A DNA stretch of 64,000 nucleotides from an uncultured Chloroflexia bacterium (GCA_963841545.1 CAWJDE010000007.1:27764-91763); one strand, 5' to 3'. Shown: positions 9,421 to 64,000, counted from the stretch's first letter. The notes: generated by a model not told the origin, from the sequence alone. Numbers and translations: made by a program.

Positions 9421-9422
9421 CC

Positions 9423-23743: not shown

Positions 23744-23819
23744 GCAGGGATTCGAACCCTGAACCTAGTGATTAAGAGTCACTTGCTCTACCGTTGAGCT
23801 ACCGGCCCGGACCCGCGGA
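23744..23819 (-). tRNA. tRNA-Lys (anticodon CUU)
   Basis: The reverse complement folds as a cloverleaf: GGGCCGG acceptor stem, D-arm GCUCAACGGUAGAGC, anticodon arm AGUGA-CUCUUAA-UCACU (CUU), T-arm CAGGGUUCGAAUCCCUG, then 3' CCGGCUCACCA with the CCA encoded. Confidence 0.85.
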
Positions 23820-44542: not shown

Positions 44543-44543
44543 G

Positions 44544-46435
44544 TCATGCCTCCTGCGTCGCGCGGACGAGCTCGGGCACGACCGTCTCGAGGTCGCCCAC
44601 GACGCCGAAGTCCGCGTAGTTGAAGATCCGCGCCCGCGGGTCCTTGTTGATCGCCACCACCGTGTCCGACATCTGCATCCCGGACACGTGCTGGACGGCA
44701 CCCGAGATGCCGACCGCGATGTACAGCTTGGGCGCGACCGTCTGGCCGGTCTGGCCCACCTGGTAGTCGTGGGTCGTGTAGCCGTCCTCGACCGCGTGCC
44801 GGGACGCGGCGACCTTGGCCTCGTCGCCGAGCACGTGCTCGAGCCCGTCGGCGAGCGGCTGCAGGAACCGCTCGAACTCCACCCTGGAGCGGATGCCATG
44901 GCCGCCCGCGACGATGATCTTGGCGTCCCGGATGCTGACCTTGGATACGAACGACTCGACCGGCGTGATCTCGACGCCCAGGTCGTGGGCCTCGAGCTCC
45001 GGCACGACCCGGACGACGTCGCCCGTGCGCGCGTCGTCGCGTCGCGGAACCTTGAACACGCCGGGCCGGACGGTCGCCATCTGGGTCGGCAAATCCTTGG
45101 TCATGATCGTGGCCATGATGTTGCCGCCGAGAGCCGGACGGGTCTGCTTGAGGATCCCGGTCAGCTCCTGGCCGCCCTTGGCATGGTCGCCGATCTCGAG
45201 CTTGGTGCAGTCGGCGGTCAGCCCCGAATCGCAGGCGTAGGCGACGCGCGGTGCGAGCTCGCGGCCCATCGGCGTCGCCCCGAACAGCATCACCTGCGGC
45301 CGTCGCTCGCGGACGAGATCGGCGATCGCCTTCTTCCACGGGATGGGCGAGAACTCCGCCAGCATCGGGTGCTCGAGCGAGTACACGACGTCGGCCCCGT
45401 GGGCGATCAGCTCGGCGGGCAGCTCGCCCCCCTCGGCGCCCGTCAGGACCACACCCACCCGCTCACCCAGGAACGCGGCCAGCTCGCGCGTCTTGCCCAG
45501 CAGCTCGAGCGAGACCGACTTCAGCCCGTCGCCCTCGCGCTCGGCCAGCACCCAGAGCTCGCCGCGAAAGGTCGGCTCGCGGCCGTCGAGCACGTAGGCG
45601 CCCTCCTCGTGGGCCGCGGGCCCGCCGCCGGCGAGGCGGTACTTGGCCTGGACGCGGCGCAGGAGGTCGGCGACGTCGGGGATCATCTCGCACGTCTTCG
45701 CGCGGTCCTCGGCCGGCGAGAAGATCCGGTAGACCTGCGTCCGGCTGCCCTTGATGCCGACCCGGTCGGGCGCCGCGCCCACGTCGGCGGCCGACCACGT
45801 CCGGATCTCCGCGTCGCGCGCCGCGCGCGCCGCGTGGAACCCGCGGTACAGGGTGTCGGTGCACGAGGTGACCGTCACCAGGACGGGGAACCGTCGCGGG
45901 ACGATGTCCTCGGTGCCCTGGGCGCCGATGCGGCGGAAGGTCAGCTCGGGATCGGTCCGCACGCCCTGCGCGTACGCGATCTGCTCGATGCCCAGGTCCT
46001 CGGCGATCTGCGGGGGCACCTGTGCGGTGTCGCCGTCGACCGACTGCATGCCGGTCACGATCAGGTAGTCGTGGCTGCCGTCGAACAGCTCGGTCTCGAT
46101 GCGCCGGATCGCCATGGCCAGCGAGTACGCCGTCGCGACCGTATCCGCGCCGCCCATGGTCCGGTCGGTCAGCAGGATCGCCTCACCTGGCGCCCGCGAC
46201 AGGCAGTCCACCAGCACATCGCGGGCCTGCGGGGGGCCCATGGTCAGGTAGATCGTCTTCGCGTCCGGATCACCGGCGGTGATCCGGCGAGCAAAGCTCA
46301 GCGCGTGCAGATCGAGCGGGTTGAGGACGCTCTCGAGCATGGCGCGACGGAGCGTGCCCTTGTCGCGGTCCCAGGCATCCTCGGGGATGTTCGAGACGTC
46401 CGGGACCTGCTTGACGAGAACGATGCAGTGCATAT
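44544..46435 (-). CDS. fused electron-transfer flavoprotein beta-alpha (EtfB-EtfA in one polypeptide)
   Basis: It starts at [12 protein letters not shown], typical of an EtfB N-terminus, and continues without a stop into an EtfA-like C-terminal half with FAD-binding motifs ([19 protein letters not shown]). The fused protein is about 630 aa. Confidence 0.85.
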
Positions 46436-50232: not shown

Positions 50233-51243
50233 TCAGGGGCGGCGGGCCACCATCGCCGTCGCTCCGGACGGCAGCTCCACCAGCTCCGGCGGGGGCAGGC
50301 CGGCGGCCGCGAACCAGCCGAGCGCCTCCCCACGGGTCACCAGCCGCGTTCCCTGGAGCATCTCGTCGAGCTGGATGCCGGCAACCAGCTCTGCGAGGCG
50401 GGTGCGCAGGTCCTCGGGGTCGCTGGGCACGTACCAGTCGAGCACGATCAGCCAGCCCCCGGGGCGCACGGCGGCCCAGGCCGAGCGGAGCGCGGCGACC
50501 GCCTCGGGCAGCAGGTGGAGCGCGTGCTGGAAGTAGGCGAGGTCCATCTCGCCCGCGTGGCCGACGGCCGTGACGTCGCCGCGCTCGATGGCGATCCGAT
50601 CCGACAGCCCGGCGGTCGTGACGTTCGCGCGCGCGCGTTCGAAGGAGTCGGGCTCGAACTCAACGCCGATTAGCGTCGTCCCCGGGAAGCGGCGCGCCAT
50701 CGCGATCAGCCAGCGGCCGCCGCCGCAGTGGACGTCGAGGATCCGCGTCCCCGGGCGGAGGTCCACGACCAGCTGGGGCAGCGCCGCCAGGACCTCCTGG
50801 AAGAACACCCCGATGTCCTGGATCGTGAGCCGCTCGATGGCGACCCGGTAGCGGTCCGGCCGGCGGGTGAGGGCGTGCCCGGTCCGCATGACCTCCAGGA
50901 GATCGCCGAAGTCCATGCTCCCGATGGCCGCATGCAGGTATTGACCACCGAGGTACTCGGCCCGATCGGCGTCGAGCAGGATCGCGGCGACCTCGTCGAG
51001 CGCCGCGACGCGGTCGCCGGTCAGCTCCACGAGGTCGTGGGCATCCGCGCCCCATGCCCAGCGGGCCACGAGATCCGGCCTCGCTCCGGCGCGCTGGGCC
51101 AGCTCGTCGATCGTGAGCCCTGCGTCTCCCGCGTCGCGGAGCAGGGCCAGCAGGCCGAGCTCGAGCCCGGCATAGACGTACCAGGTGCGATAGAAGCCGC
51201 CGAGGCTGATCACGAGGTCGTCGAACCGCTCGTCGAGCCGCAT
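50233..51243 (-). CDS. class I SAM-dependent methyltransferase with an N-terminal winged-helix/dimerisation domain (O-methyltransferase-like)
   Basis: I chose the start MRLDERFDD. The SAM motif I is ILDVHCGGG. Confidence 0.75.
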   Translation of the reverse strand: MRLDERFDDLVISLGGFYRTWYVYAGLELGLLALLRDAGDAGLTIDELAQRAGARPDLVARWAWGADAHDLVELTGDRVAALDEVAAILLDADRAEYLGGQYLHAAIGSMDFGDLLEVMRTGHALTRRPDRYRVAIERLTIQDIGVFFQEVLAALPQLVVDLRPGTRILDVHCGGGRWLIAMARRFPGTTLIGVEFEPDSFERARANVTTAGLSDRIAIERGDVTAVGHAGEMDLAYFQHALHLLPEAVAALRSAWAAVRPGGWLIVLDWYVPSDPEDLRTRLAELVAGIQLDEMLQGTRLVTRGEALGWFAAAGLPPPELVELPSGATAMVARRP

Positions 51244-51400
51244 GGCCGGATTGTGACATGCGATCCACGAGCACCGGGGTGTCGCTGTTGCCTCGTATCG
51301 GCGATGGCCGGCGTCCTCCGGGTGCGGCACGATGGGACGCGACGACGGTCCCGCACCGGGCCATGCAACCGGTCGGGCCAACGCCGTGTTTCAGGGATTG

Positions 51401-51979
51401 ATGGACGACACGCCGCTGCTCGACGATCTCGCCCGCGATCTCGACGGGTCGTTCGAGGTCCTGGTTCGCTCGCACGTCGATCGTTGCTACGCGATCGCGC
51501 TGCGGGTCCTGGGCAACTCGCACGACGCGGAGGAGGTCGCCCAGGACGCCCTGATCCGCGCCTACCGCGCCATGGCCGGATATCCGCCCGCCCGGATCCG
51601 GGACCTGCGACTCCGGCCCTGGCTGGCCACGATCGTGGTCAACCTGTGCCGCAACCGCACCCGGCGCCGGGTGCCCGCGGCCACCTCGCTGGAACCCCTC
51701 GTCGAGCGCGGCCGCGAGCCCGCCGCCGGTGATGCCACCGACCCGGCGGGCGCCGCCGTCCGCGCGGCCGGACGGGACCAGCTTGCCGCCCTCCTGACCG
51801 GCCTCCCGGATCGCTACCGGATCCCCGTCATCCTCCGCCACGTCGATGACCTCTCGTACGCCGAGCTGGCCGAGGTGCTGGGCCGGCCCGAGGGGACCGT
51901 CAAGGCACAGGTGTCCCGTGGGCTCGCCCTGCTCCGGGCGGCCGCCGCCGGCACCGAGCTCGAGGAGCTGATCGCATGA
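51401..51979 (+). CDS. ECF-type RNA polymerase sigma-70 family factor
   Basis: Region 2 (HDAEEVAQDALIRAYRA) and region 4 (LSYAELAEVLGRPEGTVKAQVSRG). The track ORF opens at 51332, but I chose the M at 51401. Confidence 0.75.
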   Translation: MDDTPLLDDLARDLDGSFEVLVRSHVDRCYAIALRVLGNSHDAEEVAQDALIRAYRAMAGYPPARIRDLRLRPWLATIVVNLCRNRTRRRVPAATSLEPLVERGREPAAGDATDPAGAAVRAAGRDQLAALLTGLPDRYRIPVILRHVDDLSYAELAEVLGRPEGTVKAQVSRGLALLRAAAAGTELEELIA

Positions 51980-52797
51980 CCCGAACCGCACTCCCCCTCC
52001 CGGCCGACGATGCGCCGGGCAGGCTCGCTTCGCTCGCGGCGCACGCACCGGCCCACGTGGCCGAGGACGTGCTCGTGGAGCTCGGGCTGGCCGACCGCAT
52101 GGCGCCCATCGAGTCCCCGCTGGGAACCCTGTGGGTCGCGTGGAACGGCCGCGGCGTCGCCGAGGTCGAGCAGGCCGCCGACGGCGCGGCGGCGGCTGCC
52201 CGGCACCAGGCCCGAACCGGCAGGCGGACGACGACCGCGCAGGCACTCCCCCATGCGCTGGCCGATGCCATCGCGCGGCGCCTCGCCGGGGAGCGGCGGG
52301 TGCGCATCCCGCTCGACCTGCGCGGCCGCACCGAGTTCGAGGTCGCGGTCTGGACCAAGGCGCTCGAGATCCCCCATGGCGAGGTCCGACCGTACGGGTG
52401 GGTCGCCGCGGAGATCGGCCGCCCGAAGGCCGTCCGTGCCGTCGGGACCGCGCTCGGGCACAACCCGATCCCGCTCATCGTCCCGTGCCACCGCGTCGTG
52501 CGCAGCGATGGCATGCTCGGGCAGTACAGCCTCGGTGGCCCGCACAACAAGCGCGCGATCCTCGCCGCGGAGGGGCTCGATCCGGAGGGGCTCGAGGCGG
52601 CGGCCCACCGCGGCGAGCGGCTGGCCGGCTCACGAACCACCCGGATCGTCTGCTGGCCGACCTGCCGCCACGCCCGCCGGGTGCAGGATCGCTACCGGGT
52701 GTCGTTCCGCTCTCTGGGCGATGCCCGCCGGGCGGGCTACCGACCGTGCAAGATCTGCCGCCCCGCAGCCCTCGGCGCGACGGACATCGGCGCCTGA
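51976..52797 (+). CDS. methylated-DNA-protein-cysteine methyltransferase (MGMT/Ogt) fused to a C-terminal Ada-type zinc-binding domain
   Basis: An active-site PCHRVV, and a C-terminal CWPTC...YRPCKICRP that resembles the Ada N-terminal Cys4 Zn site. It overlaps the sigma-factor stop by ATGA. Confidence 0.8.
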   Translation: MTRTALPLPADDAPGRLASLAAHAPAHVAEDVLVELGLADRMAPIESPLGTLWVAWNGRGVAEVEQAADGAAAAARHQARTGRRTTTAQALPHALADAIARRLAGERRVRIPLDLRGRTEFEVAVWTKALEIPHGEVRPYGWVAAEIGRPKAVRAVGTALGHNPIPLIVPCHRVVRSDGMLGQYSLGGPHNKRAILAAEGLDPEGLEAAAHRGERLAGSRTTRIVCWPTCRHARRVQDRYRVSFRSLGDARRAGYRPCKICRPAALGATDIGA

Positions 52798-52943
52798 CGG
52801 CGCTGACGCCGCGGCGTCAGCTGCCGGGTCGCCGGGAAACATGAACCGCCCCCGTCGGTCCGGGCCCCGATGGGGTCCGATCTCCGGCGGGAGCGGTCAA
52901 CCTGGATCGAGTCTGGCGCGGCCTTGGCTAGGCGCGGCCTTGG

Positions 52944-53660
52944 CTAGGCGCGCCGGTGGCGCCGGCGGCGTGCGGGCGTCGTGATCGCGAGGCATGCGCC
53001 GCCGATCAGGAGCAGCACGAGGCCGTAGCCGCTGCCGGGGTTGTCCTGGCTGCCGCCGCTGATGCCATCCGTGGGCGGCGGGGTCAGGCGGGGCGTGCCG
53101 GTCGCGGCCTCGACGCTGCCGCTCGGCGTGGGCGTGGGGGTGGGCGTGACCTCCGGGGTCGGGGTGGGCGTGACCTCAGGGGTGGGCGTGGGCGTCGGCT
53201 CCGGGGTCGGGGTGGGCGTGACCTCAGGGGTCGGCGTGGGCGTCGGCTCCGGGGTCGGGGTGGGCGTGGGCGCCGCGCAGGCGTCAAGCGTCAGGTTGAA
53301 CGTCTTGGACCATCCGTGGGAGCCGGTCGGGTCGTCCCACGCCGTCACGACCACCGTCGCCGTGTGCGCGGCCGTGTCCGGGAGGACGGACCACGACCTC
53401 GAGAACGTGGAGCCGAAGGAGAACGGCGAGCCGGCCACAGCCGTGCCGTCGATCGCGACGGCGACCGAGTTGTGGTGCGAGCTGTCGTAGTAGGTCAGAT
53501 GGACGGTGAGTCCCGTGTCGCAGGTGAGCGTCGCCTGGGGCGTGTGCCCGAGCGCCGTGCCCGCGAACAGGAACAAGGTGACGAGTGCGGCCGTGACGGC
53601 GGCCAACGACTTCCCCGGCCGATGGCGGACCCCGCGGCCGAGATCAAATCCCCGAGACAT
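52944..53660 (-). CDS. secreted surface protein with a (PTPTPEx) repeat linker and a C-terminal TM anchor plus Arg-rich tail
   Basis: A signal peptide, a roughly 110-aa folded domain, repeats [20 protein letters not shown]..., then a hydrophobic stretch and RRRRHRRA. Confidence 0.6.
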
Positions 53661-53897
53661 GTCTCTCGCGCCTCCGTGAGCGATACCTGGTGGGCCTACA
53701 AGCGAGGTAGGGCGGGATGCACCGGCAGTGCCTGGTTGCCATCAGTGCCATCCGATCGTACTGACGGGTCCCCCCCGCGGGTACTGGTCACAACCGGACA
53801 AGAACGCATCGGACGGCATTCGAGCGCCGTGGGAATCGCGGTGCCGGTGCACGCGAACACCGCCGGGGGCAGTACGAAGGTCACCCGAGGTTCGGGG

Positions 53898-56021
53898 TCA
53901 GCCCGCGGCGGCCTCCGCCAGCACCGTTCGGGCGACCCGGCGCGCCCAGATCATCGTCGTGATCATGGGGTTCACGCCCAACGCCGTCGGGAACAGCGAG
54001 GCGTCGCCGACGTAGAGGTCGCGGACGGTCCGGTCCGAGCCACGCCGGGCCTGCGGCGTCCGGACCCTGCCCCACGGATCGCACGGATGCGCGGTCGGAT
54101 CCCCTCCGGCCCGGACCGAGCCCATCTGGTGGGCCGACACCACGGTGCCTCGGTTGGGCGCGAAGTCGAACTGGCCGAGGCGGGCCTCGAACGCCGCGAA
54201 CGCGGCGGCATCTCCGTCCCCGCCCGTCGCTCGCAGCCACGCGGACGGCGTCCCGACGGCCAGGAGCTCGCGCGATCCGCCGGCCCAGGCGATCCGGGCA
54301 CACGCGGCGAGCGCGCGCTGCAGCGTCCGCCGGTCCGCCGCCGAGACCGCGTAGTCGATCCGCGGGCGACCGGCCCGCGACAACCGCACCCGGCCGGATC
54401 CCTCATCGGCGACGATCCCGATCAGGGGCGCCACCCGCCGGACGCCGCCCATGAGGCGCGCGAACCCCTCGCGACCCTCCCAGTCGAACACGAGCGCGAT
54501 CAGCCCGGGCGTGCCGGGCGCGGACTCGACGATGAACCCGCCCTCCCGGCCGGCGGGCGTCGCCGGCGACTCGAGACCCGTGAGCACCCCCATCGCCTGG
54601 GCGGTCCCGTGCCACATCAGGACGTCGTCGTCGAGGAACGCGGCAAGCACCGTCACCGGGTGGAGCCGCAGGTGGCGGCCGGTGGCCCGGTGGTCGAGCC
54701 CCGACCGAAGCAGCACCACCGGCGACCGGAGGGCTCCGGCGGCGACGACCACCTGGCGAGCGTGAACGACCAGGCGGCGGGGCACGCCGCCGAGCGTCAC
54801 CGTTGCGTCCACCCCGGTCGCCCGGCCGCCCTCGATCCGAACCCGGTCCACCGGCGCGTCGGCGACGATGCGCGCGCCATGGCGCCAGGCGTCGGCGAGG
54901 TGCACCCGGAGCCCCGACTGCTTGGCGCCCCGCCGGCAGCCGAACCCGCATCGTCCGCAGTCTCCGCAGCCGACCCCGTTCCGGCGCGTCTCCGCCGCCT
55001 CCAGCCCGAGCGACGCTGCGCCCCGCCGGATCAGCTCGTCCTTGGGCGGGACGTCGGGTGCCGGTCCGACCGCCAGCTCGGCCTCGATCGCCGCCCGGTC
55101 CGTGTCGACCTGCGGCCCGTCGAACCCCTCGACGCCGTGATCGATCGCCCATCGCCGGCGCACCGGCGCCGGCGGCGCGATGCAGGTCATCCAGTTCACC
55201 GTCGTGCCGCCGCCGACCGCGCCGCCCGCGAGGGTCATGATCGACGCGTCCCAGGACACGTTGAAGCCGTGGTTGAGGTACAGCCGGTCGAAGGCGGCCA
55301 GCTCGTCGGTGGGCATCGCCGGCTCGGCCACGAAGGGCCCGGCCTCGAGCACCACCACGTCGCGCCCGGCGCGTGCGAGCTCGGCAGCGATCACGCCCCC
55401 GCCGGCCCCCGACCCGACCACGACGACGTCCGTCTCGAGCACGATCGTGTCGCCGGCGGTCGCGCCGGCCGTGCCCGTCGCGGCACCGGCGTCGGGCCGG
55501 GTCGCCGGCTGGCCGACGGCGAACGCGTGGATGGGGGTCGGATCGGTGGCGACCGGCTCGGGTCGATGACGGTAGCCCGTCGCCGCGAGCTGCGGGTTCT
55601 CGCCCCGCTCGCCCGGATCCGCGTAGGCGAGGAAGGCGAGCAGTCGCTTGAGGCCCTGGTAGGCCGTGCGGCGCAGCGGCACCGCGGACCTGGCCCATCG
55701 CCGCAGGTAGCGCTCGCGGCCGGCCTGGTCGAGGTCCGAGAAGCGCACCGGCCGGCCGCAGAGCAGCAGGTTCGCGAGCCGTGACTCGAACACCCGGAGC
55801 ACCAGCCGGAGCTGGGCGACCTGGGCCGGGTCGGCCGCGAGGTCGAGGGAAGCGGCGGTCAGCCGCGCACGGCGCTCATGGTCGCCATCGATCAGGGTCT
55901 CGGACAGGCGAGCCAGCGTGGCGAGGGCCCCGGGCGACCAGCCCGCCGGCTCGGGCGTGGGCGGGCCCGCCGGGGCGGCGGGGTCCACGGCCGGCAGGAC
56001 GATGGCGTCGTCGTGGGTCAC
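53898..56021 (-). CDS. GMC-family FAD-dependent oxidoreductase (fatty-alcohol or sterol oxidase-like)
   Basis: I chose a GTG start inside the 1111-aa track ORF. It has an FAD GxGxxG motif (VVVGSGAGGGVIAAELA) and a GMC C-terminal signature (HQMGSVRAG...VGDASLFPTALGVNP). Confidence 0.8.
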   Translation of the reverse strand: MTHDDAIVLPAVDPAAPAGPPTPEPAGWSPGALATLARLSETLIDGDHERRARLTAASLDLAADPAQVAQLRLVLRVFESRLANLLLCGRPVRFSDLDQAGRERYLRRWARSAVPLRRTAYQGLKRLLAFLAYADPGERGENPQLAATGYRHRPEPVATDPTPIHAFAVGQPATRPDAGAATGTAGATAGDTIVLETDVVVVGSGAGGGVIAAELARAGRDVVVLEAGPFVAEPAMPTDELAAFDRLYLNHGFNVSWDASIMTLAGGAVGGGTTVNWMTCIAPPAPVRRRWAIDHGVEGFDGPQVDTDRAAIEAELAVGPAPDVPPKDELIRRGAASLGLEAAETRRNGVGCGDCGRCGFGCRRGAKQSGLRVHLADAWRHGARIVADAPVDRVRIEGGRATGVDATVTLGGVPRRLVVHARQVVVAAGALRSPVVLLRSGLDHRATGRHLRLHPVTVLAAFLDDDVLMWHGTAQAMGVLTGLESPATPAGREGGFIVESAPGTPGLIALVFDWEGREGFARLMGGVRRVAPLIGIVADEGSGRVRLSRAGRPRIDYAVSAADRRTLQRALAACARIAWAGGSRELLAVGTPSAWLRATGGDGDAAAFAAFEARLGQFDFAPNRGTVVSAHQMGSVRAGGDPTAHPCDPWGRVRTPQARRGSDRTVRDLYVGDASLFPTALGVNPMITTMIWARRVARTVLAEAAAG

Positions 56022-56119
56022 CGCGGGCGGGCCGGTGGGGAGGCGGGCGCGGGCAACCCCCTGATGGTGTCGGCGGGGCGTCGGGCGGCCATCGCCCGGG
56101 ATGATACGGCCCGCTCCGG

Positions 56120-57370
56120 TCAGGCCGGGCGCTCGAACCCCTGCGCCGGCCACGGCTCGCAGCGGAGCGGGCGGTCCGCGCGGTAGCCGAGCGCGTAGTC
56201 GGCCTGGATCAGGGTGTGCAGCTGGCTGGTCCCCTCGTAGATCACGGCCGCCTTCGCATTGCGCAGGTAGCGCTCGACCGGGAACTCGTTGGAGTAGCCG
56301 TTCGCGCCGTGGATCTGGATCGCGTCCAGCGCCGCCTGCACCGAGTGCTCCGTCGCGTGCCACTTGGCCAGCGAGGTCTCGCGCGTGTTGCGCAGGCCGC
56401 GGTTCTTGAGCGCCCCCGCCTGGAACACGAGCAGGCGCCCGATCTCGATGCCCTTCGCCATGTTGGCGATCATCTGCTTGACCAGCTGGTGGCGGCCGAT
56501 CTCCTCGCCGAACGTCTCGCGCTCGTGCGCGTACCTGACCGAGGCGTCCAGGCAGGCCTGGGCGAGCCCGACGGCGCCGGCGGCGACCGTGTAGCGACCC
56601 TGGTCGATCGCGCTCATCGCGATCAGGAAGCCCTCGCCCTCCTCGCCGATCCGGTGCTCGACCGGGACCCGCACGTCCTCGAGGTCGATCAGACCCGTGT
56701 TGCCCGCGCGGATGCCCATCTTGCCGTGGAGGGTGCCCGTGGTCAGGCCGGGCATCCCGCGCTCGAGCACGAAGGCCGTGACGCCGCGGTGCCGCTTCGC
56801 CCGGTCCACCGTCGCGAACACCAGGAACTGGTCGGCGAGATCGGCCAGGCTGATCCAGATCTTGTGGCCGTTGAGGACGTAGCTGTCGCCGTCGCGGCGT
56901 GCCGTCGTCGCGAGGTTGCCCGCGTCCGTGCCCACCCCGGGCTCGGTCAGCGCGAACGTCGCCAGCCGCTCGCCCTTCGCCTGCGGGACGAGCCATCGCC
57001 GCCGCTGCTCCTCGGTCCCCCATTGCAGCAGGGTCAGGCTGTTGAGCCCGACATGGACGCTCTGGACGACGCGGAACGAGGTGTCGGCACGTTCCAGCTC
57101 CTCGCACAGCAGGGCGAAGCTGATGTAGTCCATCCCGCCCCCGCCGTAGGCCTCCGGGATCGGCGCGCCGAGGAGGCCCTGCTCCCCCATCCGGTCGAAC
57201 AGCTCGCGATGGACCTCGCCGCGCTCGTCCCACTCGCGAATGTTGGGCAGGATCTCTGCCTCGGCGAACGCGCGCGCGGCGTCGCGAACGAGGCGCTGCT
57301 CGTCGTTCAGGGCGAAGTCGATCACGGCGCTTCCGGTGGCCTCGGGCTTGGGGGCGTGGTCGGAGGCCAT
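56120..57370 (-). CDS. acyl-CoA dehydrogenase
   Basis: ACAD N-terminal, middle and C-terminal domains, with a catalytic Glu near YEGTSQ. Confidence 0.9.
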   Translation of the reverse strand: MASDHAPKPEATGSAVIDFALNDEQRLVRDAARAFAEAEILPNIREWDERGEVHRELFDRMGEQGLLGAPIPEAYGGGGMDYISFALLCEELERADTSFRVVQSVHVGLNSLTLLQWGTEEQRRRWLVPQAKGERLATFALTEPGVGTDAGNLATTARRDGDSYVLNGHKIWISLADLADQFLVFATVDRAKRHRGVTAFVLERGMPGLTTGTLHGKMGIRAGNTGLIDLEDVRVPVEHRIGEEGEGFLIAMSAIDQGRYTVAAGAVGLAQACLDASVRYAHERETFGEEIGRHQLVKQMIANMAKGIEIGRLLVFQAGALKNRGLRNTRETSLAKWHATEHSVQAALDAIQIHGANGYSNEFPVERYLRNAKAAVIYEGTSQLHTLIQADYALGYRADRPLRCEPWPAQGFERPA

Positions 57371-57456
57371 CCTACCGCCGGCACGGCGTCGAGCCCGCCG
57401 CCAAGCTCGACGCGCCACCCTCCGGAGCACCGTCGGCGCTCCCTATACTCGGCGAC

Positions 57457-58761
57457 GTGGACACCTTCGACGCCGCTTCCGCACCGCTCGACCTGGCCGC
57501 CCTGGCGGAGCCCAACCTGTCGCCCGTGCTGGGCCGGTACATGGACCGCAGCTGGTCCCATGGCGTCGGGCACCGCCTGTTCGACACCGCCGGCCGCGAG
57601 TACCTCGACTTCGCCAACGGCATCGCCGTCACGGCGCTCGGTCATGCCCACCCGCGCGTCACGGCGGCGATCCATGCGCAGGTCGACCGCCTGATCGGAC
57701 CCGTCCACGCCATGGGCTTCGCGGAGTCGACCGTGACGCTCGGGCGGATGCTCGCCGGGACGTTCCCGGACCCCCTCGACACGGTGCTGTTCCTCAATTC
57801 GGGCTCGGAGGCCGTCGACGGCGCGATCAAGCTCGCGCGCCGCGTCACCGGGCGCCCGGGGATCGTCGCCTTTCGGGGGGCCTTCCACGGGCGGACGGTC
57901 GGTGCCACGAGCCTCACCAGCTCCAGCCTCAACTACCGGGTCGGGTACGAGCCGCTGCTGCCGGGGGTGTACTTCGCGCCCTTCCCTGCGGCCTACCCGG
58001 AGTTCGACGGCGATGAGGAGCGGGCCACGGCCGCGGCGCTCGGCGTCCTCAGGTCCCTGCTGACGACCATCGTGGCACCGTCCGACGTCGCGGCCGTGTT
58101 CATCGAGCCGGTCCAGGGCGAGGGCGGCTACTACCCGGCGCCCGCCGGCTTCCTGCGCGAGCTCCGCGCGCTGTGCGACGAGCACGGGATCCTGCTCGTC
58201 GCCGACGAGGTCCAGTCGGGCTACGGGCGGACCGGCGAGATGTGGGCGTTCGAGCACGCCGGGATCGTCCCCGACGTGGTGTGCGTGGCCAAGGCGATCG
58301 CGAACGGCCTGCCGCTGTCGGCGGTCGTCACCCGGCGCGAGCTCCAGGAACGGTGGGGCCGGGGCGCCCACGGCACGACGTACGGTGGCAATCCGGTCGC
58401 CTGCGCGGCCGGGATCGCCGTGCTGGAGACGATCCGGGACGAGCACCTGGTCACGAACGCGCGGGCACGTGGCGCCGAGCTGTCCGGTGGGCTGCGGGAG
58501 CTGATGGCCGACCACCCGGCCATCGGCGACGTCCGTGGACCGGGGCTCATGATCGGCGTGGAGTTCGTCACCGACCGCTCGACGCGCAAGCCCGACGGGG
58601 CGACGGCGGAAGCGGTGGCCGCGCGAGCGGCGGACGCGGGCCTGCTGCTGCTCCTGTGCGGGATCGACCACCAGGTGATCCGCTGGATCCCACCCCTGGA
58701 CGTGACCGTGTCCGAGGTGGAGGAGGCGCTCGGCCTGTTCGAGAATGCCCTCAGGGGCTGA
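57457..58761 (+). CDS. class III (omega-type) aminotransferase, GABA-aminotransferase family
   Basis: A PLP Lys in DVVCVAKAIANG and a GSEAVDGAIKLAR motif. Confidence 0.9.
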   Translation: MDTFDAASAPLDLAALAEPNLSPVLGRYMDRSWSHGVGHRLFDTAGREYLDFANGIAVTALGHAHPRVTAAIHAQVDRLIGPVHAMGFAESTVTLGRMLAGTFPDPLDTVLFLNSGSEAVDGAIKLARRVTGRPGIVAFRGAFHGRTVGATSLTSSSLNYRVGYEPLLPGVYFAPFPAAYPEFDGDEERATAAALGVLRSLLTTIVAPSDVAAVFIEPVQGEGGYYPAPAGFLRELRALCDEHGILLVADEVQSGYGRTGEMWAFEHAGIVPDVVCVAKAIANGLPLSAVVTRRELQERWGRGAHGTTYGGNPVACAAGIAVLETIRDEHLVTNARARGAELSGGLRELMADHPAIGDVRGPGLMIGVEFVTDRSTRKPDGATAEAVAARAADAGLLLLLCGIDHQVIRWIPPLDVTVSEVEEALGLFENALRG

Positions 58762-58770
58762 GCGCCATCC

Positions 58771-58795
58771 GGCCGGCAGGTGCCGGCCGGGCTCG
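58771..58795 (+). terminator. possible GC-rich hairpin between convergent genes
   Basis: A palindromic ccggccgg-caggtg-ccggccgg just after the aminotransferase stop. There is no U-tract. Confidence 0.3.
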
Positions 58796-58803
58796 CGACC
58801 GGT

Positions 58804-58998
58804 CTAGCGGTTGCGGGCCAGGAACTGCATCACGTCCTCGAGCCGAAAGCGCCGGTCCCCACGCTTGCACACCCGGTAGTACGGGAGCTCGCCGCGATCG
58901 CCGAGACGCTTCACGGTGTTCACGTGGAGGTGCAGCATCTCGGCCACCTCGCTCGCGGTGAGCATGGGTCCGAGCTCAGTGATTGCCATCGACGCCAT
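58804..58998 (-). CDS. small helix-turn-helix DNA-binding protein (excisionase/MerR-like HTH_17 family)
   Basis: I chose the start MASMAITELGPMLTASEVAEMLHLHVNTVKRL. It is about 64 aa. Confidence 0.55.
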   Translation of the reverse strand: MASMAITELGPMLTASEVAEMLHLHVNTVKRLGDRGELPYYRVCKRGDRRFRLEDVMQFLARNR

Positions 58999-59419
58999 CT
59001 GCAGATCGCCTCTTCGTGCCTGGAGCCGGGCGGGATTCCGTGGAGGGCACTGCGGTGCGGTCCGGCTCGTTGCTGGGAGGAGCATCCGGGTCGGAGGCGG
59101 TTTAGCCAAGCCGTACTCTCGGTTGGCCGGTGGTACCAGCCGTCACGCGGGAGTGCGCCGATGGGCTCGACGGCGGTCCGCAAGCTGCCGGAACCGGGTC
59201 CCCGGCCGCACGGATCGGGTGCCGGCAGGCCTGATCGGGGGCCGGCGTCGCGGAGCCACGCGTGGGGGCACAGCCAAGCGTCGTTCCCGCGATCGCCGGC
59301 CCCCGGGCATCGTCTCGTCACCGAAACCGGTGGCTCCTCGATGCGGTCATTGTGCGACGCCGTGCGCGCCCTGTACAGAGCTCGCGGGGTGGATCGAGGG
59401 GACCCCGGAGGGCAGGATG

Positions 59420-59480
59420 ACGGGCCTGCGGGCCAGGCCTGCGGGACGGGCCTGCGGGACGGGCCTGCGGGCCAGGCCAC
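59420..59480. repeat. 13-14-nt tandem repeat (gggcctgcggga/cc), about 4.5 copies, intergenic
   Basis: Direct repeats upstream of the HTH gene and downstream of hypA. Confidence 0.7.
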
Positions 59481-59525
59481 CGGGTCGCCGGGCCCGGTCG
59501 ACGGGCGTCCTGGCTGTGGGTGATC

Positions 59526-59870
59526 TCAGCCCCGCGCGCGCACCTCGACGAGCTCGAGCTCGGCGGTCCGCGGGAGGTCCGAGAGGGTGCTGCACGACGG
59601 GCAGATCGCCATCGTCGGTCCGACCACGTCGTCGTGGCCCAGCGCCCCGTCGAAGCCGCAGTCGCAGCGCAGCCGGATGTCGAACGGCTCGGTTTCCAGG
59701 GTGGATCCCGCGAGCGGGCCCGTGACCGTCAGCATCTCGAACGCCTGGCGCAGCACGGGCTCGGGGATCGTCGTCGCGTGGCGCACCCGGATCGCGGCCA
59801 CCGGCCGCCCCGCAGCGTGCTCCCCGGCCGCCTCGACCAGCCGCTCCACGAGCGACACCTCATGCATCGG
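59526..59870 (-). CDS. hypA: hydrogenase nickel-incorporation / maturation factor HypA
   Basis: I chose the start MHEVSLVERLVEA. The protein is about 114 aa with an N-terminal His2 and a Zn site (CDCG...CPSCS). Confidence 0.8.
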   Translation of the reverse strand, partial: PMHEVSLVERLVEAAGEHAAGRPVAAIRVRHATTIPEPVLRQAFEMLTVTGPLAGSTLETEPFDIRLRCDCGFDGALGHDDVVGPTMAICPSCSTLSDLPRTAELELVEVRARG

Positions 59871-60420
59871 GCGCCACCTCGTCGCCGGGCGCGGCCCGGC
59901 GGGCCACGGCCGGAGCTCGCTCGCCGGCCGCCGGCACGCGGCCGTGCGCCTCGACCAGCGCCGCCACCACATCGACCGCCCGAGGCACCACGGCCTCCGC
60001 CACCGGCGACAGCCCGTCCCCGAGCTCGAGCGATGCGGCCCCGATGCTCACGACCACCACCTGGGGCGAGCGACCCCACAGCTCGCGGGTCAGCGCGATC
60101 AGGCCTTCAGGCCCGATGTGATGGGTCCAAGCCGACGCGGACCGCAGGCTCGCGTCGAGCGTCCGGACGCGGACCTCGCCCGGCTCGACGTCGACGGCGG
60201 CATCGACCAGGACGACGAGCGACGCTCCGCTTGCATCGATCGCCAGCTCGGGCGTCAGCTGGTGCTCGGCGCGGACGTCGACGCCCGCGAGCCGCGGGTC
60301 CCGGGCGAGGCGCCGCGCGACCGCCCAGCCGACGCCGTCGTCGGTGCACAGCGAGTTGCCGTACCCGACGACCAGGACGCCGCCCGGTCGCGCCTCCACC
60401 CCGGCCGGCGGGTCGATCAT
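59860..60420 (-). CDS. hoxW: hydrogenase maturation endopeptidase (HoxW/HycI-like)
   Basis: The internal start MIDPPAGVEARPGGVLVVGYGNSLCTDDGVG overlaps the hoxH stop by ATGA. Confidence 0.75.
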   Translation of the reverse strand: MIDPPAGVEARPGGVLVVGYGNSLCTDDGVGWAVARRLARDPRLAGVDVRAEHQLTPELAIDASGASLVVLVDAAVDVEPGEVRVRTLDASLRSASAWTHHIGPEGLIALTRELWGRSPQVVVVSIGAASLELGDGLSPVAEAVVPRAVDVVAALVEAHGRVPAAGERAPAVARRAAPGDEVAPDA

Positions 60421-61838
60421 CGGACGAGCGTGTCCAGGACCGCGCCGCCGGGTGCCAGCAGCTCGATCCGGAGCGCCATCTGGCCCAGCGCATGGGTCGA
60501 GCACGACAGGCACGGGTCGTAGCACCGGATCACGGCCTCGACGCGGTTGAGCATCGACTCCTCGAGCCGGTCGGCCTTGACGTTGTGGCGCGCGACCTGG
60601 AGCACCGCGCGGTTCATCGCCATGTTGTTGTGCCCGGTGGCGATCACCAGGTTGACCCACTGGACGATCCCGTCGTCGTCGACCCGGTAGTGGTGCATCA
60701 GCGTGCCCCGCGGAGCCTCGGACACACCGATCCCCTCGTTGCGGTTGATGCCGGCCTCGGACCGGACGTGCCTGGACAGGATGTCCGGGCCGCGCAGCAG
60801 CTGGTCCACCTTCTCGATCGCGTGCAGGGTGTCGATCAGCCGGGCGTAGTGGTAGTGGAACGACGAGCCGGCCACGCGGCCCACCCGCCAGCGGAACTTC
60901 TCGAGCTCCTCGTCCGCGCGCGGGGTGCCGGTCCGCTCGGCCACGTTGAGCCGGGCCAGCGGCCCCACCCGGTAGATGCCGTCGGGGTAGCCCATCGGCT
61001 TCCAGTAGGTCGACTTGAGGTACGACCAGGGCTCCACGGCCTCGCCGATGTAGTCGTTGAACAGCTTGGGGTCGATCTTGTCCCCCAGGTGCTGCCCATC
61101 GGCGTCCACGACGCGGATCCAGCCGCCGTAGTGGTCGACGTTCCCCTGGCGATCGACGAGGCCCATGAACGCGGACCGGAAGTTGCCGAAGGTGGCGGCT
61201 TCCTCCTCCCAGCGCAGCATGTCGGTCTTGTACCAGGCGATCGCCCGCTCGACCGCCGCGATCGCGCCGGGCACGCCCGCCAGGATCCGGTCGCGGATCT
61301 CGGCCGTCAGCTGGAACGCCACGCCGCCGGGGACGATCCCCTCGGGATGGATGCGCTTGCCGCCCAGCCACTCGATGATCTGCTGGCCCCACTTGCGGAG
61401 CTCGATGCCGTCCCGGGCGAGCTGCGGGTTCTGCCGGGCGACGCCCAGGATGTTGCGCACCGCCGGATCGGCGTCGAACCCGAACAGCAGGTCGGGCGAG
61501 GAGAGGTGGAAGAACGAGAGCGCGTTCGACTGCACGATCTGGCCGAGGTTGATGATCCGGCGCAGGTCGGCGCCCGTGGGCGTCGGCTCCACGGCCATGA
61601 TGTCGTCCACGGCCTTGGCCGAGGCCACCAGGTGGCTGACCGGGCAGATCCCGCAGATGCGGGCCATGAGGGCCGGCATCTCGTGGACGGGGCGGCCCTG
61701 GGTGATCCGCTCGAAGCCGCGGAACTGGGTGACGTGGAAGCGCGCGTCGACGACCTCGCCGCGGTCGTCGAGCTGGATCGTGATCTTGGAATGGCCTTCG
61801 ATCCGGGTGATCGGGTCGATGACGATCGTCTGGCTCAT
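60417..61838 (-). CDS. hoxH: NAD-coupled bidirectional [NiFe]-hydrogenase large subunit (group 3, HoxH-type)
   Basis: The start is MSQTIVIDPITRIEGH, the N-terminal motif is RICGICP and the C-terminal motif is DPCLSCSTH. It is about 473 aa, the size typical of group 3. Confidence 0.9.
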   Translation of the reverse strand: MSQTIVIDPITRIEGHSKITIQLDDRGEVVDARFHVTQFRGFERITQGRPVHEMPALMARICGICPVSHLVASAKAVDDIMAVEPTPTGADLRRIINLGQIVQSNALSFFHLSSPDLLFGFDADPAVRNILGVARQNPQLARDGIELRKWGQQIIEWLGGKRIHPEGIVPGGVAFQLTAEIRDRILAGVPGAIAAVERAIAWYKTDMLRWEEEAATFGNFRSAFMGLVDRQGNVDHYGGWIRVVDADGQHLGDKIDPKLFNDYIGEAVEPWSYLKSTYWKPMGYPDGIYRVGPLARLNVAERTGTPRADEELEKFRWRVGRVAGSSFHYHYARLIDTLHAIEKVDQLLRGPDILSRHVRSEAGINRNEGIGVSEAPRGTLMHHYRVDDDGIVQWVNLVIATGHNNMAMNRAVLQVARHNVKADRLEESMLNRVEAVIRCYDPCLSCSTHALGQMALRIELLAPGGAVLDTLVR

Positions 61839-61852
61839 GGCGGCACCTTCTG

Positions 61853-62425
61853 TCAGCGTCCGAACCGGGCGCCGGTCGTCCGGGGGACGCGGCCGGACAG
61901 CAGGTCGTCGAGCAGGGTGTAGATGAGGTCCGCGTGCGGCGGACAGCCGGGCAGGAACACGTCCACGGGCACCACCCTGTGGACGGGCCGCGCGGTCGGA
62001 AGCAACGCCGGCACCAGCTGGTCGGGCGTCCCCGGGTTGAGCGTGACGTTCTCGCGGTAGGCCCGGTCGAGGAGCGGCGCGACCCCGATCGGATTGCGCA
62101 TCCCGGGCACGTTCGAGGTCACCGCGCAGTCGCCGAACGCCACGATGGTCTTCGTCCGCTCGCGGACCAGGCGGATCCTGTGGAGGTCGTCCTCGCTGGA
62201 CACGGCGCCCTCGACCAGGCACACGTCGACGTTCTCGGGGTACTCCTTGACGTCGACCAGCGGGCTGTACACGAGGTCCGCGCGCTCGAAGATGTCGAGC
62301 AGCCGCTCGTCGAGGTCGAGGAGCGACATGTGGCAGCCGGAGCAGCCGTCCAGCCAGACGGTGGCGACCCGCGGCCTGGCCGCTGCCCGGGCTCCGTCGT
62401 CGGTCGTGGCGTCGGGATCGCTCAC
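61853..62425 (-). CDS. hoxY: bidirectional hydrogenase small subunit (HoxY)
   Basis: A GTG start preceded by GGAGGAG, a proximal-cluster motif LDGCSGCHMS, and GDCA...GCPP. It overlaps the hoxU stop by GTGA. Confidence 0.85.
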   Translation of the reverse strand: MSDPDATTDDGARAAARPRVATVWLDGCSGCHMSLLDLDERLLDIFERADLVYSPLVDVKEYPENVDVCLVEGAVSSEDDLHRIRLVRERTKTIVAFGDCAVTSNVPGMRNPIGVAPLLDRAYRENVTLNPGTPDQLVPALLPTARPVHRVVPVDVFLPGCPPHADLIYTLLDDLLSGRVPRTTGARFGR

Positions 62426-63138
62426 AGCCCACGCTCCTCCTGGACCGTCCGCAGCCAGGGCAGGAACGGACGCCGGTCCTTGCTGCCGGCCGCCACCGGG
62501 CGGCCCTTCTCGAACAACGCGCCGGTCGGGCACACCTGGACGCACTTGCCGCAGCTGGTGCACGTCGGCGACTCGCCCCAGGGGATGCCCATGTCGGTCT
62601 GGACACGGGTCTCGAGGCCGCGGTGCATGACGTCCCAGGTGTGGGCGCCCTCGATCTCGTCGCAGACGCGCACGCAGCGGAGGCACAGGATGCACCGGTT
62701 GTGGTCGATCGCGTACAGCTTGTGGCTGGCGTCGATGCCCACCGCGGGGTTGATCCGCGGCAGGTCGAAGTGGGTGATGCCCAGATCGGCCGCCAGGTCC
62801 TGGAGCTCGCAATGGTTGTTGGCCACGCACACGGCGCACACGTGGTTGCGCTCGAGGAAGATCATCTCGGTCACGCTGCGCCGGTACTCGGCGAGGGCGT
62901 CGGAGTGGGCGGTCACCTGCATGCCCTCGGCGATCTGCGTGACGCAGGCGGCCGCGAGCTTGGGCGAGCCCGTGATCTCGACCACGCACAGGCGGCAGGC
63001 GCCCCGGTCGTGGATCCCCGGCAGGTGGCACAGGCCGGGGATGTCGATCCCGTTCTCCTCGGCCACCTCCATGATGGTCTGCCCCTCGGAGCCGGCGACG
63101 TCCTTGCCGTCGATCGTCAGGGTGTGGACGGTGGTCAT
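62422..63138 (-). CDS. hoxU: diaphorase FeS subunit HoxU (NuoG N-terminal-like, 2Fe-2S + 4Fe-4S)
   Basis: I chose the start [14 protein letters not shown]. The Cys clusters are [28 protein letters not shown] and [11 protein letters not shown]...[12 protein letters not shown]. Confidence 0.85.
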
Positions 63139-64000
63139 GCCATCACCTCCACCGGCTCGATGACGCAGACGCCGGCGGGGCACACCCGGTCCTCGATATG
63201 GGCCAGGTACTCGTCACGGAAGTAGCGCAGCGTGCTGAAGATCGGGTTGGGCGCGCCCTGGCCGAGACCGCACAGCGACATCCGCTGGACGACCCCCGCC
63301 AGGCCTTCGAGCTGGGCAAGGTCCGCGAGCGTCGCCCGGCCGCGGGTGATCAGGTCGAGGAGCATCCACATCTGGGTCGTGCCCACCCGGCACGGCACGC
63401 ACTTGCCGCACGACTCCTCGCGGCAGAAGTCCATGAAGTACTTGGCGACGTCGACCATGCACGAGGTGTCGTCCATGACGATCATGCCGCCCGATCCCAT
63501 GAACGAGCCGAGCTCGATCAGCGCCTCGTACGTGACCGGGGTGTCCAGGTGCTCGGCGGGGATGCAGCCGCCCGACGGACCACCGGTCTGGACCGCCTTG
63601 AACGGCCGCCCATCGATGATCCCACCGCCGATGTCGAAGATGATCTCGCGCAGGGTCGTGCCCATCGGCACCTCGACCAGGCCGGTGTTGACGACGCGGC
63701 CGGCCAGCGCGAACACCTTGGTCCCGCGACTCCTGCCCTCGGCGATCGCGGTGTACCAGTCGGCGCCCTTGCGCAGGATGGTCGGAACGCTGGCGAAGGT
63801 CTCGACGTTGTTGATCAGGGTCGGGCAGTCGAACAGGCCCTGGACCGCCGGGTACGGCGGGCGCGGGCGGGGCGTTCCCCGCTTGCCCTCGACCGACGCG
63901 ATCAGCGCCGTCTCCTCGCCGCACACGAAGGCGCCGGCGCCGAGCCGCACCTGGACGTCGAAGCTGAACGAGGTGTCGGCGATCCCTGCGCCCAGCCAGC
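63135..64000 (-). CDS. hoxF: diaphorase flavoprotein subunit HoxF (NuoF-like), C-terminal part only; 5' end lies beyond the window
   Basis: NuoF motifs are present: [22 protein letters not shown], and a 4Fe-4[11 protein letters not shown]. The reading frame is open to the window edge. Confidence 0.85.

Follow-up and report, generated by a model that had tools for sequence, protein, structure and literature searches.

Organization of the Hox Locus

Does the group of hox genes at positions 59526–64000 of the window (the whole 64,000-nucleotide stretch of DNA analyzed here) encode a complete soluble [NiFe] hydrogenase, and with which electron carriers would such an enzyme work? The host is a Limnocylindria-class Chloroflexota bacterium, a member of an uncultured soil and freshwater class. 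A preliminary description had reported in this region a complete hoxF-U-Y-H-W module followed by hypA. All six genes were found by domain matches, on the minus strand and in the order hoxF, hoxU, hoxY, hoxH, hoxW, hypA, with intact reading frames, a strong coding-type GC3, and a minus-strand coding pattern in the codon-position GC profile across the entire region. An 800-aa plus-strand open reading frame (59520..61922) was rejected as a spurious antisense ORF.

The module present in the window is not complete, however, because hoxF is cut by the window end and hoxE lies outside. Only the 3' part of hoxF (63135..64000) is included, corresponding to codons 265–551 of 551 (the C-terminal 287 codons, 52%). 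We therefore took the remainder of the operon from a public contig that is 99.77% identical to positions 50404–64000 and carries the full hoxF (551 aa) and, upstream of it, hoxE (163 aa). The hoxF fragment in the window is identical to residues 265–551 of this full HoxF, and hoxE overlaps the hoxF start codon on the contig. An operon of seven genes, hoxE-hoxF-hoxU-hoxY-hoxH-hoxW-hypA, thus has its downstream two-thirds in this region, and, since the near-identical contig supplies the rest of hoxF together with hoxE, the enzyme is probably of the five-subunit HoxEFUYH type. Every junction had been described as a 4-nt ATGA or GTGA overlap, which was correct for three of the five: the ATG codons of hoxU and hoxW overlap the stop codons of hoxF and hoxH, respectively (ATGA), and the GTG start of hoxY overlaps the stop codon of hoxU (GTGA). 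The hoxY/hoxH junction is a 14-nt intergenic gap, and hoxW and hypA overlap by 8 nt (ATGCATGA).

Hydrogenase Core and Group Assignment

The 473-aa HoxH (60417..61838, minus strand) carries the precomputed Pfam HoxH domain (PF27537) and PF00374 (NiFeSe_Hases). Its L1 motif RICGICPVSH (residues 60–69; 61632–61661) and L2 motif DPCLSCSTH (residues 441–449; 60492–60518) comprise the Ni-Fe cysteine motifs, both of which occur in 82 of 82 relatives, and a C-terminal tail of 24 residues is available for proteolytic maturation. HoxY (190 aa; 61853..62425, minus strand) is a short small subunit that matched Oxidored_q6 only (E 5.5e-30); the Pfam scan found no NiFe_hyd_SSU_C domain, and C28, C31, C100, and C161 provide ligands for a single proximal [4Fe-4S] cluster. 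A Ni-Fe site in HoxH and one proximal [4Fe-4S] cluster in HoxY are shown at the level of the predicted proteins.

To the solved large subunits in the PDB ranking, HoxH aligned best with that of the Acetomicrobium mobile enzyme (7t2r_D, 511 bits) and that of the soluble hydrogenase (SH) of Hydrogenophilus thermoluteolus (5xf9_D, 425 bits), while group 3c (Mvh/Vhu-type) enzymes scored 337–379 bits and group 3a (Frh) and 3b (sulfhydrogenase) enzymes about 105–115 bits. The identities were 55% with Acaryochloris HoxH, 51% with A. mobile HydL, and 43% with Cupriavidus necator HoxH. Since a wide distance separates HoxH from the F420- and NADP-coupled groups, its predicted membership of group 3d holds. 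The preliminary description was borne out in identifying a second [NiFe] hydrogenase of group 3, soluble and linked to a diaphorase, with hoxW and hypA downstream.

Diaphorase Subunits

Within the window, hoxF matched Pfam Complex1_51K, SLBB, and NADH_4Fe-4S and encodes the motifs GAGAF (63927–63941) and GGPSG (63570–63584) as well as the CxxCxxC motif with which a [4Fe-4S] site begins (63390–63410). In the full protein from the near-identical contig, to which the residue numbers refer, bifurcating-type residues occupy all three diagnostic positions, namely GAFMDR (residue 207), GAGAF (284), and GGPSG (403). According to published work, these positions distinguish bifurcating enzymes from NADH-only ones (PMC7311640; PMC8880783); a point against applying this motif rule here is its derivation mainly from [FeFe] enzymes. 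An alignment revealed that GAFMDR, GAGAF, GGPSGG, and four N-terminal cysteines are common to this HoxF and cyanobacterial HoxF, whereas the NAD-only HoxF of C. necator has GTFKDR, GAGAY, and SGPSGE and is without two of the four cysteines. The motifs are kept in 62–64 of 64 relatives. The N-terminal [2Fe-2S] ligands C32, C37, C68, and C72, encoded on the near-identical contig outside the window, align to those of HydB, and the nine solved structures that match HoxF best are all B subunits of bifurcating-hydrogenase-type (Bfu) complexes. No C-terminal 2x[4Fe-4S] ferredoxin domain was found in HoxF: the alignment reaches residue 537 of the 597 in HydB, beyond which HoxF continues for just 8 more residues. 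An FMN/NAD(H) site, one [4Fe-4S] site, and an N-terminal [2Fe-2S] site can thus be assigned to HoxF from its predicted ligands.

HoxU (238 aa; 62422..63138, minus strand) scored 354.3 bits against the HoxU equivalog model NF005745 (cut-off 333) and matched Pfam Fer2_4, NADH-G_4Fe-4S_3, and Fer4_Nqo3. The positions of its Cys and His residues provide the ligands of one [2Fe-2S] and three [4Fe-4S] clusters, with a His among the ligands of one cluster, and HoxU is, as predicted from these features, the FeS relay subunit of the diaphorase. It scored 192 bits against the A. mobile protein, matching only residues 5–207 of the 692 of HydA, versus 120 bits against SH HoxU. HoxE, from the near-identical contig, reached 221.7 bits on the HoxE model NF005747, just under the cut-off of 224, compared with 135.9 bits on the best NuoE model; its cysteines (87, 90, 95, 131, and 135) align to HydC and are predicted to add a further [2Fe-2S] site. 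Each of the 72 related loci on contigs that extend to this position has the gene. Every predicted metal ligand of the complex is present.

Maturation Genes

HoxW (186 aa; 59860..60420, minus strand) is, judging by its score of 86 bits on the maturation protease model TIGR00072 (cut-off 47), a hydrogenase-specific C-terminal maturation endopeptidase; our local Pfam copy returned no match for it. The hoxW gene follows hoxH in 81 of 82 related loci, with a divergent product (43–75% identity). HypA (113 aa; 59526..59867, minus strand) scored 42 bits on Pfam HypA (PF01155, cut-off 29) and fell under both NCBIfam HypA cut-offs, and its MHE N-terminus and CxC...CxxC zinc site mark it as a predicted nickel-insertion metallochaperone. 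Its gene adjoins hoxW in only 34 of the 82 related loci. HoxW would remove the tail of HoxH after HypA-assisted nickel insertion. As had been stated earlier, hypB-F were not found among the approximately 46 window ORFs scanned with Pfam or the gene calls over 50.4–64 kb; likewise, no ferredoxin or pyruvate:ferredoxin oxidoreductase gene was found in the window.

Comparison with Characterized Hydrogenases

The predicted structural subunits, five in number when HoxE is counted from the near-identical contig, correspond in kind and gene order to those of the cyanobacterial HoxEFUYH of Synechocystis sp. PCC 6803. As the sequence reference for cyanobacterial Hox we used that of Acaryochloris marina pREB4, whose HoxF is 56% identical to the protein here (C. 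necator HoxF, 35%). Of the “bidirectional hydrogenase complex protein” equivalog models, HoxU passes its own and HoxE falls short of its own by 2 bits, and the HoxU ligands match the 3x[4Fe-4S] + [2Fe-2S] set, including one His, described for Synechocystis (bioRxiv 10.64898/2026.06.25.734504). Cyanobacterial HoxF shares the N-terminal [2Fe-2S] site and the three flavin-site motifs, and the HoxF of Synechocystis is also without the C-terminal ferredoxin domain, although that enzyme is reported to bifurcate and confurcate all the same (bioRxiv 10.64898/2026.06.25.734504). In contrast to cyanobacteria, this very GC-rich Chloroflexota host does not photosynthesize, so that any ferredoxin would come from metabolism and not from photosystem I. 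The genes here also form a compact operon with translational coupling that includes hoxW and hypA, whereas unrelated genes lie between those of A. marina.

Among solved structures, the electron-bifurcating NiFe-HydABCSL of A. mobile (PDB 7T2R/7T30) was the best match for HoxH, HoxF (655 bits), and HoxU. Its HydC matched HoxE at 106 bits, with HydC/NfnC of other Bfu-type complexes scoring higher. Its flavin-site motifs agree with those here, as do the additional [2Fe-2S] clusters of subunits B and C; however, HoxU corresponds to only the first ~207 residues of HydA, and the long A subunit with its C-terminal cluster domain is missing, as is the C-terminal domain of HydB. That these two elements of the one bifurcating [NiFe] enzyme with a solved structure are absent counts against bifurcation.

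The SH-type HoxFUYH(I) enzymes of C. necator H16 and H. thermoluteolus (PDB 5XF9) share group 3d, the FMN diaphorase, and the HoxYH core, and have a short HoxU and, downstream of hoxH, hoxW and hypA. They differ from the enzyme here in having no separate HoxE, a HoxF with a fused, cluster-less NuoE-like N-terminal domain, and a HoxI with adjacent hypB/hypF, neither of which occurs at this locus.

Alternative Interpretations

One alternative, which corresponds to the NAD-coupled reading of the preliminary description, is a bidirectional hydrogenase that uses NAD(H) only and would work like the SH enzymes, with no part for ferredoxin. This reading agrees with the convention that HydDB-style group 3d is called NAD-coupled, with the shortness of HoxU, and with a hoxW-hypA arrangement that resembles the C. 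necator hoxFUYHWI-hypA2B2F2 cluster. We nevertheless regard it as rather unlikely, since HoxH, HoxF, and HoxU are all closer to their cyanobacterial or A. mobile counterparts than to those of SH, HoxF differs from C. necator HoxF at the three diagnostic positions and keeps [2Fe-2S] ligands that are absent from SH, the near-identical contig encodes HoxE as a protein of its own with a predicted [2Fe-2S] site, and hoxW is followed by hypA, no HoxI (cyclic-nucleotide-binding) gene being found there. The C. necator HoxFUYHI type was rejected on the same features. The “NAD-coupled” label is probably too narrow, as HoxF agrees with bifurcating-type flavoproteins and with cyanobacterial HoxF in every diagnostic residue and with the C. 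necator protein in none.

Other explanations are far less probable. The strong similarity of full HoxF to the NuoF family (475 bits on TIGR01959) could suggest that E/F/U form a NuoEFG module of respiratory complex I that happens to adjoin a hydrogenase, a possibility raised in the preliminary description for the flavoprotein. It can be virtually dismissed: all NuoF and NuoE models scored below their cut-offs, HoxF has a Hox/HydB-type N-terminal [2Fe-2S] domain, HoxU has 238 aa against 600–800 aa for NuoG, no other nuo genes are adjacent, and translational coupling ties E/F/U to hoxY and hoxH, the unit being conserved in about 80 genomes. Hardly any weight attaches either to an F420- or NADP-coupled (group 3a/3b) enzyme mislabelled as Hox, to which one might ascribe the weak, sub-threshold NCBIfam matches that HoxH and HoxY gave with sulfhydrogenase and Frh models; the grouping with such enzymes, also considered earlier, is contradicted by the wide gap in HoxH scores and by partner subunits that are HoxE/F/U and not HyhBG or FrhB. 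A decaying, non-functional remnant would fit the absence of hypB-F nearby and the dispensability of hypA in many relatives, and is very improbable in view of the intact frames, the coding-type GC3, the full set of metal ligands, and a HoxH that is 83–95% identical across about 80 species-level genomes.

Proposed Function

Taken together, the seven-gene operon probably encodes a cytoplasmic group-3d HoxEFUYH [NiFe] hydrogenase that would connect H2 to NAD(H), most likely together with ferredoxin. By analogy with its nearest characterized relatives, the enzyme would reversibly link H2/H+ to NAD(H). Because the flavoprotein has bifurcating-type residues and the complex two extra [2Fe-2S] clusters, ferredoxin would most likely be the second partner, needed alongside NAD(H). 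This requirement draws on homology and on one 2026 preprint, in which Synechocystis HoxEFUYH was reported to need NAD(H) and ferredoxin together and to bifurcate and confurcate (bioRxiv 10.64898/2026.06.25.734504). H2 uptake would then proceed by bifurcation and H2 production by confurcation of NADH and reduced ferredoxin, and the enzyme would probably act as a redox valve when oxygen is scarce.

The chances appear evenly balanced that well over a hundred species-level Limnocylindria genomes encode such a minimal ferredoxin- and NAD-dependent bifurcating/confurcating [NiFe] hydrogenase without a tethered ferredoxin domain. If so, H2 production by confurcation or H2 uptake by bifurcation would be standard in a lineage that is widespread, non-photosynthetic, and presumed aerobic, and much of “group 3d” would have been mis-described as NAD-only.

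Conservation and Genomic Context

About 80 related genomes conserve the operon, and the order hoxEFUYHW is unchanged wherever the contig of a related locus extends far enough to show it. It is an ordinary, well-conserved operon that offers little new, encoding one more cyanobacterial-type HoxEFUYH hydrogenase. A membrane-bound group-1 [NiFe] hydrogenase cluster, previously placed about 40 kb away as the uptake enzyme, indeed lies at 14241–19588, about 44 kb from the Hox genes. To call this combination metabolically notable was an overstatement, as group-1 and group-3d enzymes commonly occur in one organism. Moreover, an abundance of group 3d in the Chloroflexi supergroup has been noted before (bioRxiv 10.1101/2021.08.23.457424). 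The flavin-based trans-membrane module mentioned in the preliminary description was also located, at 8597–11529, where a ferric-reductase-like FAD/NAD membrane protein is encoded beside FMN_bind and ApbE genes.

Organization and Extent of the hox Operon

Long open reading frames are found in every frame of the window because of its G+C content of approximately 73%. Between 59.5 and 64.0 kb, the codon-position GC was high, low, and medium from left to right, indicating that the hox genes are located on the minus strand. Plus-strand open reading frames (e.g., 59520..61922, 800 aa) showed the wrong codon-position GC and translated into arginine/proline-rich nonsense, and were discarded as antisense artefacts. 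On the minus strand, we identified a partial hoxF (63135..64000; 287 codons) that runs off the window edge and encodes NuoF-type FMN, SLBB, and 4Fe-4S domains; hoxU (62422..63138; 238 aa), which matched the NCBIfam HoxU equivalog with 354 bits (cut-off, 333); hoxY (61853..62425; 190 aa), with a GTG start and an Oxidored_q6 domain; hoxH (60417..61838; 473 aa), with a NiFeSe_Hases domain; hoxW (59860..60420; 186 aa), for which the Pfam search gave no match and which was identified instead through NCBIfam as a TIGR00072 maturation protease (86 bits; cut-off, 47); and hypA (59526..59867; 113 aa), with 42 bits in Pfam HypA (cut-off, 29), though under both NCBIfam HypA cut-offs. The family searches supported each of these identities and the gene order given in the preliminary description. 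Its statement that all junctions are 4-nt overlaps held for F/U (ATGA), U/Y (GTGA), and H/W (ATGA), but not for Y/H, a 14-nt gap with an AGAAGG purine run, or for W/hypA, an 8-nt overlap (ATGCATGA).

The identical HoxH protein is present on two public metagenome contigs. L001, the 2.65-Mb ENA contig ERZ25039539 contig_9582, is 99.77% identical to positions 50404–64000 of the window, and the 287 HoxF residues encoded in the window match residues 265–551 of the HoxF encoded by the 551-codon gene of L001 without a difference. On this contig, hoxE, which encodes a 163-aa protein with a 2Fe-2S thioredoxin-like fold, lies upstream of hoxF and overlaps it by GTGA; the operon is therefore hoxE-F-U-Y-H-W-hypA. 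Judged from this alignment, the window carries about two-thirds of the operon; the Hox module had been described as complete, but hoxF is cut at the window edge and one structural gene, hoxE, lies wholly outside. Neither promoters nor terminators were detected in 58700–64000 or upstream of hoxE on L001, with a consensus that may not suit this phylum.

Assignment of the Hydrogenase Class

HoxH contains the motifs RICGICPVSH and DPCLSCSTH, and a tail of 24 residues comes after the latter. In comparisons with solved enzymes, HoxH scored 511 bits to the large subunit of the bifurcating NiFe-HydABCSL of Acetomicrobium mobile (51% identity to HydL), 425 bits to the NAD-reducing hydrogenase of H. thermoluteolus, 337–379 bits to Mvh/Vhu-type (group 3c) enzymes, and approximately 105–115 bits to F420-reducing (3a) and sulfhydrogenase (3b) enzymes. 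Its identity to the products of labelled plasmid-borne hoxH genes was 55% for Acaryochloris marina and 43% for C. necator, and in the precomputed public annotation, the identical protein is assigned to Pfam PF27537 (HoxH). HoxF scored below every NuoF cut-off, and the score of HoxE with the HoxE model was far above those with the NuoE models. On the basis of these HoxH comparisons and the HoxE/F/U partners, we assign the enzyme to group 3d, in agreement with the soluble group-3 Hox hydrogenase proposed in the preliminary description; the two possibilities raised against that proposal, an F420- or NADP-type HoxH and a Nuo paralogue in place of HoxF, were contradicted by the scores.

The identical HoxH has been publicly deposited as "NAD-reducing hydrogenase large subunit", a name that is correct in general terms. 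The occurrence of an uptake and a soluble hydrogenase in one organism is common, and to call the pairing metabolically notable was an overstatement. In the Chloroflexi supergroup, group 3d has also been reported to be one of the most abundant types of hydrogenase (bioRxiv 10.1101/2021.08.23.457424). With both the protein and group 3d in Chloroflexi already on record, the hox operon taken alone is of little importance, and the preliminary annotation is correct but ordinary, with errors in two details, completeness and junctions.

Flavoprotein Type and Electron Partner

HoxF was aligned with the labelled HoxF proteins of A. marina and of the NAD-reducing soluble hydrogenase (SH) of C. necator. 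The latter (pHG1) was the NAD-only reference, as H. thermoluteolus HoxF was outside the 60 best solved matches; a Rhodococcus ruber plasmid match considered as a soluble-hydrogenase reference was actually a formate dehydrogenase flavoprotein and was left out. HoxF of the window operon was 56% identical to A. marina HoxF and 35% identical to C. necator SH HoxF. It shared with A. marina the NADH-site motif GAFMDR (GTFKDR in C. necator SH), the FMN-site residue in GAGAF (GAGAY), the SLBB-region motif GGPSGG (SGPSGE), and all four N-terminal [2Fe-2S] cysteines (two of four in C. necator SH). The same three motif positions were proposed by Losey et al. to split bifurcating from NADH-only flavoproteins (PMC7311640), and in the bifurcating enzyme of A. 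mobile, Feng et al. located them in the FMN/NAD pocket (PMC8880783). Furthermore, among solved proteins, the nine closest to full-length HoxF were B subunits of bifurcating-hydrogenase-type (Bfu) complexes, the best HoxE relatives were C subunits of such complexes, and HoxU scored 192 bits to the N-terminal region of HydA from A. mobile versus 120 bits to SH HoxU. The useful point of this analysis is that the HoxF signature, as read from these alignments, sets the enzyme apart from the NAD-only type and beside the cyanobacterial and bifurcating one; metabolic models of Limnocylindria built from genomes should therefore allow for both ferredoxin and NAD(H) in the case of this enzyme.

The enzyme differs from that of A. 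mobile in its architecture. HoxF could be aligned with HydB up to residue 537 of the 597 in HydB and extends only 8 residues past this point, indicating that HoxF is without the C-terminal 2x[4Fe-4S] domain, while HoxU spans only approximately 207 of the 692 residues of HydA. The described architecture of Synechocystis HoxEFUYH, which is without both of these A. mobile features, is exactly as here (10.64898/2026.06.25.734504). According to this 2026 preprint, H2 production by the Synechocystis enzyme strictly requires NADH and reduced ferredoxin together, NAD+ and ferredoxin are both reduced on H2 uptake, and NADPH is inactive (10.64898/2026.06.25.734504). By homology, and on the signatures and this one preprint, the present enzyme may likewise couple to NAD(H) and ferredoxin; we regard this reading and plain coupling to NAD(H), as in the preliminary description, as about equally probable. 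The label "NAD-coupled" is probably too narrow, since the HoxF signatures match the cyanobacterial/bifurcating type and not NAD-only C. necator. We give an even chance to the view that the enzyme is a minimal [NiFe] hydrogenase of the confurcating/bifurcating kind, and that it typifies a widespread uncultured lineage.

Predicted Electron Path and Maturation

The cofactor sites were read from the ligand sets, from which the function of the electron path is predicted. HoxY has the ligands of a proximal [4Fe-4S] cluster (C28, C31, C100, and C161), and HoxU has ligand sets for one His-ligated [4Fe-4S], two more [4Fe-4S], and one [2Fe-2S] cluster. Electrons would flow from the Ni-Fe site of HoxH via the proximal cluster of HoxY to the HoxU clusters, and then via the [4Fe-4S] site of HoxF to FMN, with a putative side branch to the [2Fe-2S] sites of HoxE and the HoxF N-terminal domain.

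Nickel delivery by HypA and tail removal by HoxW are established steps of [NiFe] maturation; here, nickel would be supplied by HypA, with its MHE N-terminus, and HoxW would cut off the HoxH tail. The HypA zinc site has the form C-x-C ... C-x-x-C here and (RCDCG ... CPSC) in 31 of 33 related loci, the textbook form being CxxC...CxxC. In line with the preliminary description, hypB-F were not detected in the window, either among the approximately 46 ORFs scanned, with small ORFs covered only as far as they passed the GC3 filter, or in the gene calls covering 50.4–64 kb.

Conservation and Flanking Genes

Relatives are encoded in 214 stretches of the species-representative genomes scanned, with HoxH identities of 83–95% among the best 80 of the 214. 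The relatives are nearly all MAGs labelled Chloroflexota, uncultured Chloroflexia, or Candidatus Limnocylindrales, obtained from soil, peat, lake, and permafrost, and from these close relatives the host is assigned as a Limnocylindria (Ellin6529) bacterium. An actinobacterial host, which the G+C content of 73% had suggested, was rejected, as the close relatives all belong to Chloroflexota / Candidatus Limnocylindrales. The order hoxE-F-U-Y-H-W was held in every related locus as far as the contig extends, and the L1 and L2 motifs of HoxH were retained in all; hypA directly followed hoxW in only 34 of 82 loci, and HoxW was the most divergent protein (43–75% identity). The presence of close HoxH relatives in more than 200 stretches, nearly all from Limnocylindria-type Chloroflexota, can be set beside a 2021 survey in which the lineage (as "Eulabeiota") has relatively few hydrogenases per genome.

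Upstream of hoxE, L001 (1–6250) encodes an AMP-forming acetyl-CoA synthetase (acs), a GPR1/FUN34/YaaH acetate channel (satP), a deacetylase, and a Pat-like acetyltransferase. Only the closest relatives, 5 of 50 full-flank loci, have these acetate-handling genes beside hox, and a link of hox to acetate metabolism was therefore rejected for want of a stable association. Downstream of hypA on the same minus strand is a gene for a 64-aa HTH_17 (MerR/excisionase-like) protein (58804–58998), with 89–100% identity among the related loci listed. Of 50 full-flank loci, 18 have this gene downstream of hox, accompanied by genes for an aminotransferase and an acyl-CoA dehydrogenase. Neither a called gene nor an Rfam match falls in the 527-nt gap between it and hypA in the window (58999–59525).

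Other Genes in the Window

The membrane-bound uptake hydrogenase mentioned in the preliminary description was found as a group-1 cluster on the minus strand (14241–19588). It comprises a small subunit with a Tat signal (18128–19588), a large subunit (16368–18131) that, among solved enzymes, best matches those of A. vinosum and E. coli Hyd-1, a cytochrome b (15562–16371), a maturation protease of its own (15032–15544), and, directly downstream of the latter, a multihaem cytochrome c (Cytochrome_C7/paired CXXCH; 14241–15035), which may accept electrons from this hydrogenase in addition to cytochrome b. The small subunit (486 aa) has a tail of approximately 130 residues past the usual C-terminal membrane helix (18128–18560, minus), which is Pro-, Ala-, and Glu-rich with near-repeats (PAEPAGATIPNVEPAGATNPNAEPASATIPNVEPEA) and is unusually long for group-1 small subunits.

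The flavin-based trans-membrane module was likewise present, as a minus-strand row of genes for a membrane protein that is ferric-reductase-like and has FAD and NAD domains (10177–11529), a small FMN_bind protein (9423–9983), and an ApbE flavin transferase (8597–9370). This row adjoins a PMT_2/YkcB glycosyltransferase and resembles a set for extracytoplasmic flavinylated electron transfer. The only Rfam matches were one tRNA gene in the window, at 23737–23808 (minus), and one tRNA in L001. At 42962–46433 (minus), amid beta-oxidation and methylmalonyl-CoA mutase genes, the gene for a fused EtfB-EtfA electron-transfer flavoprotein (629 aa) immediately precedes that for an ETF:quinone oxidoreductase (526 aa).
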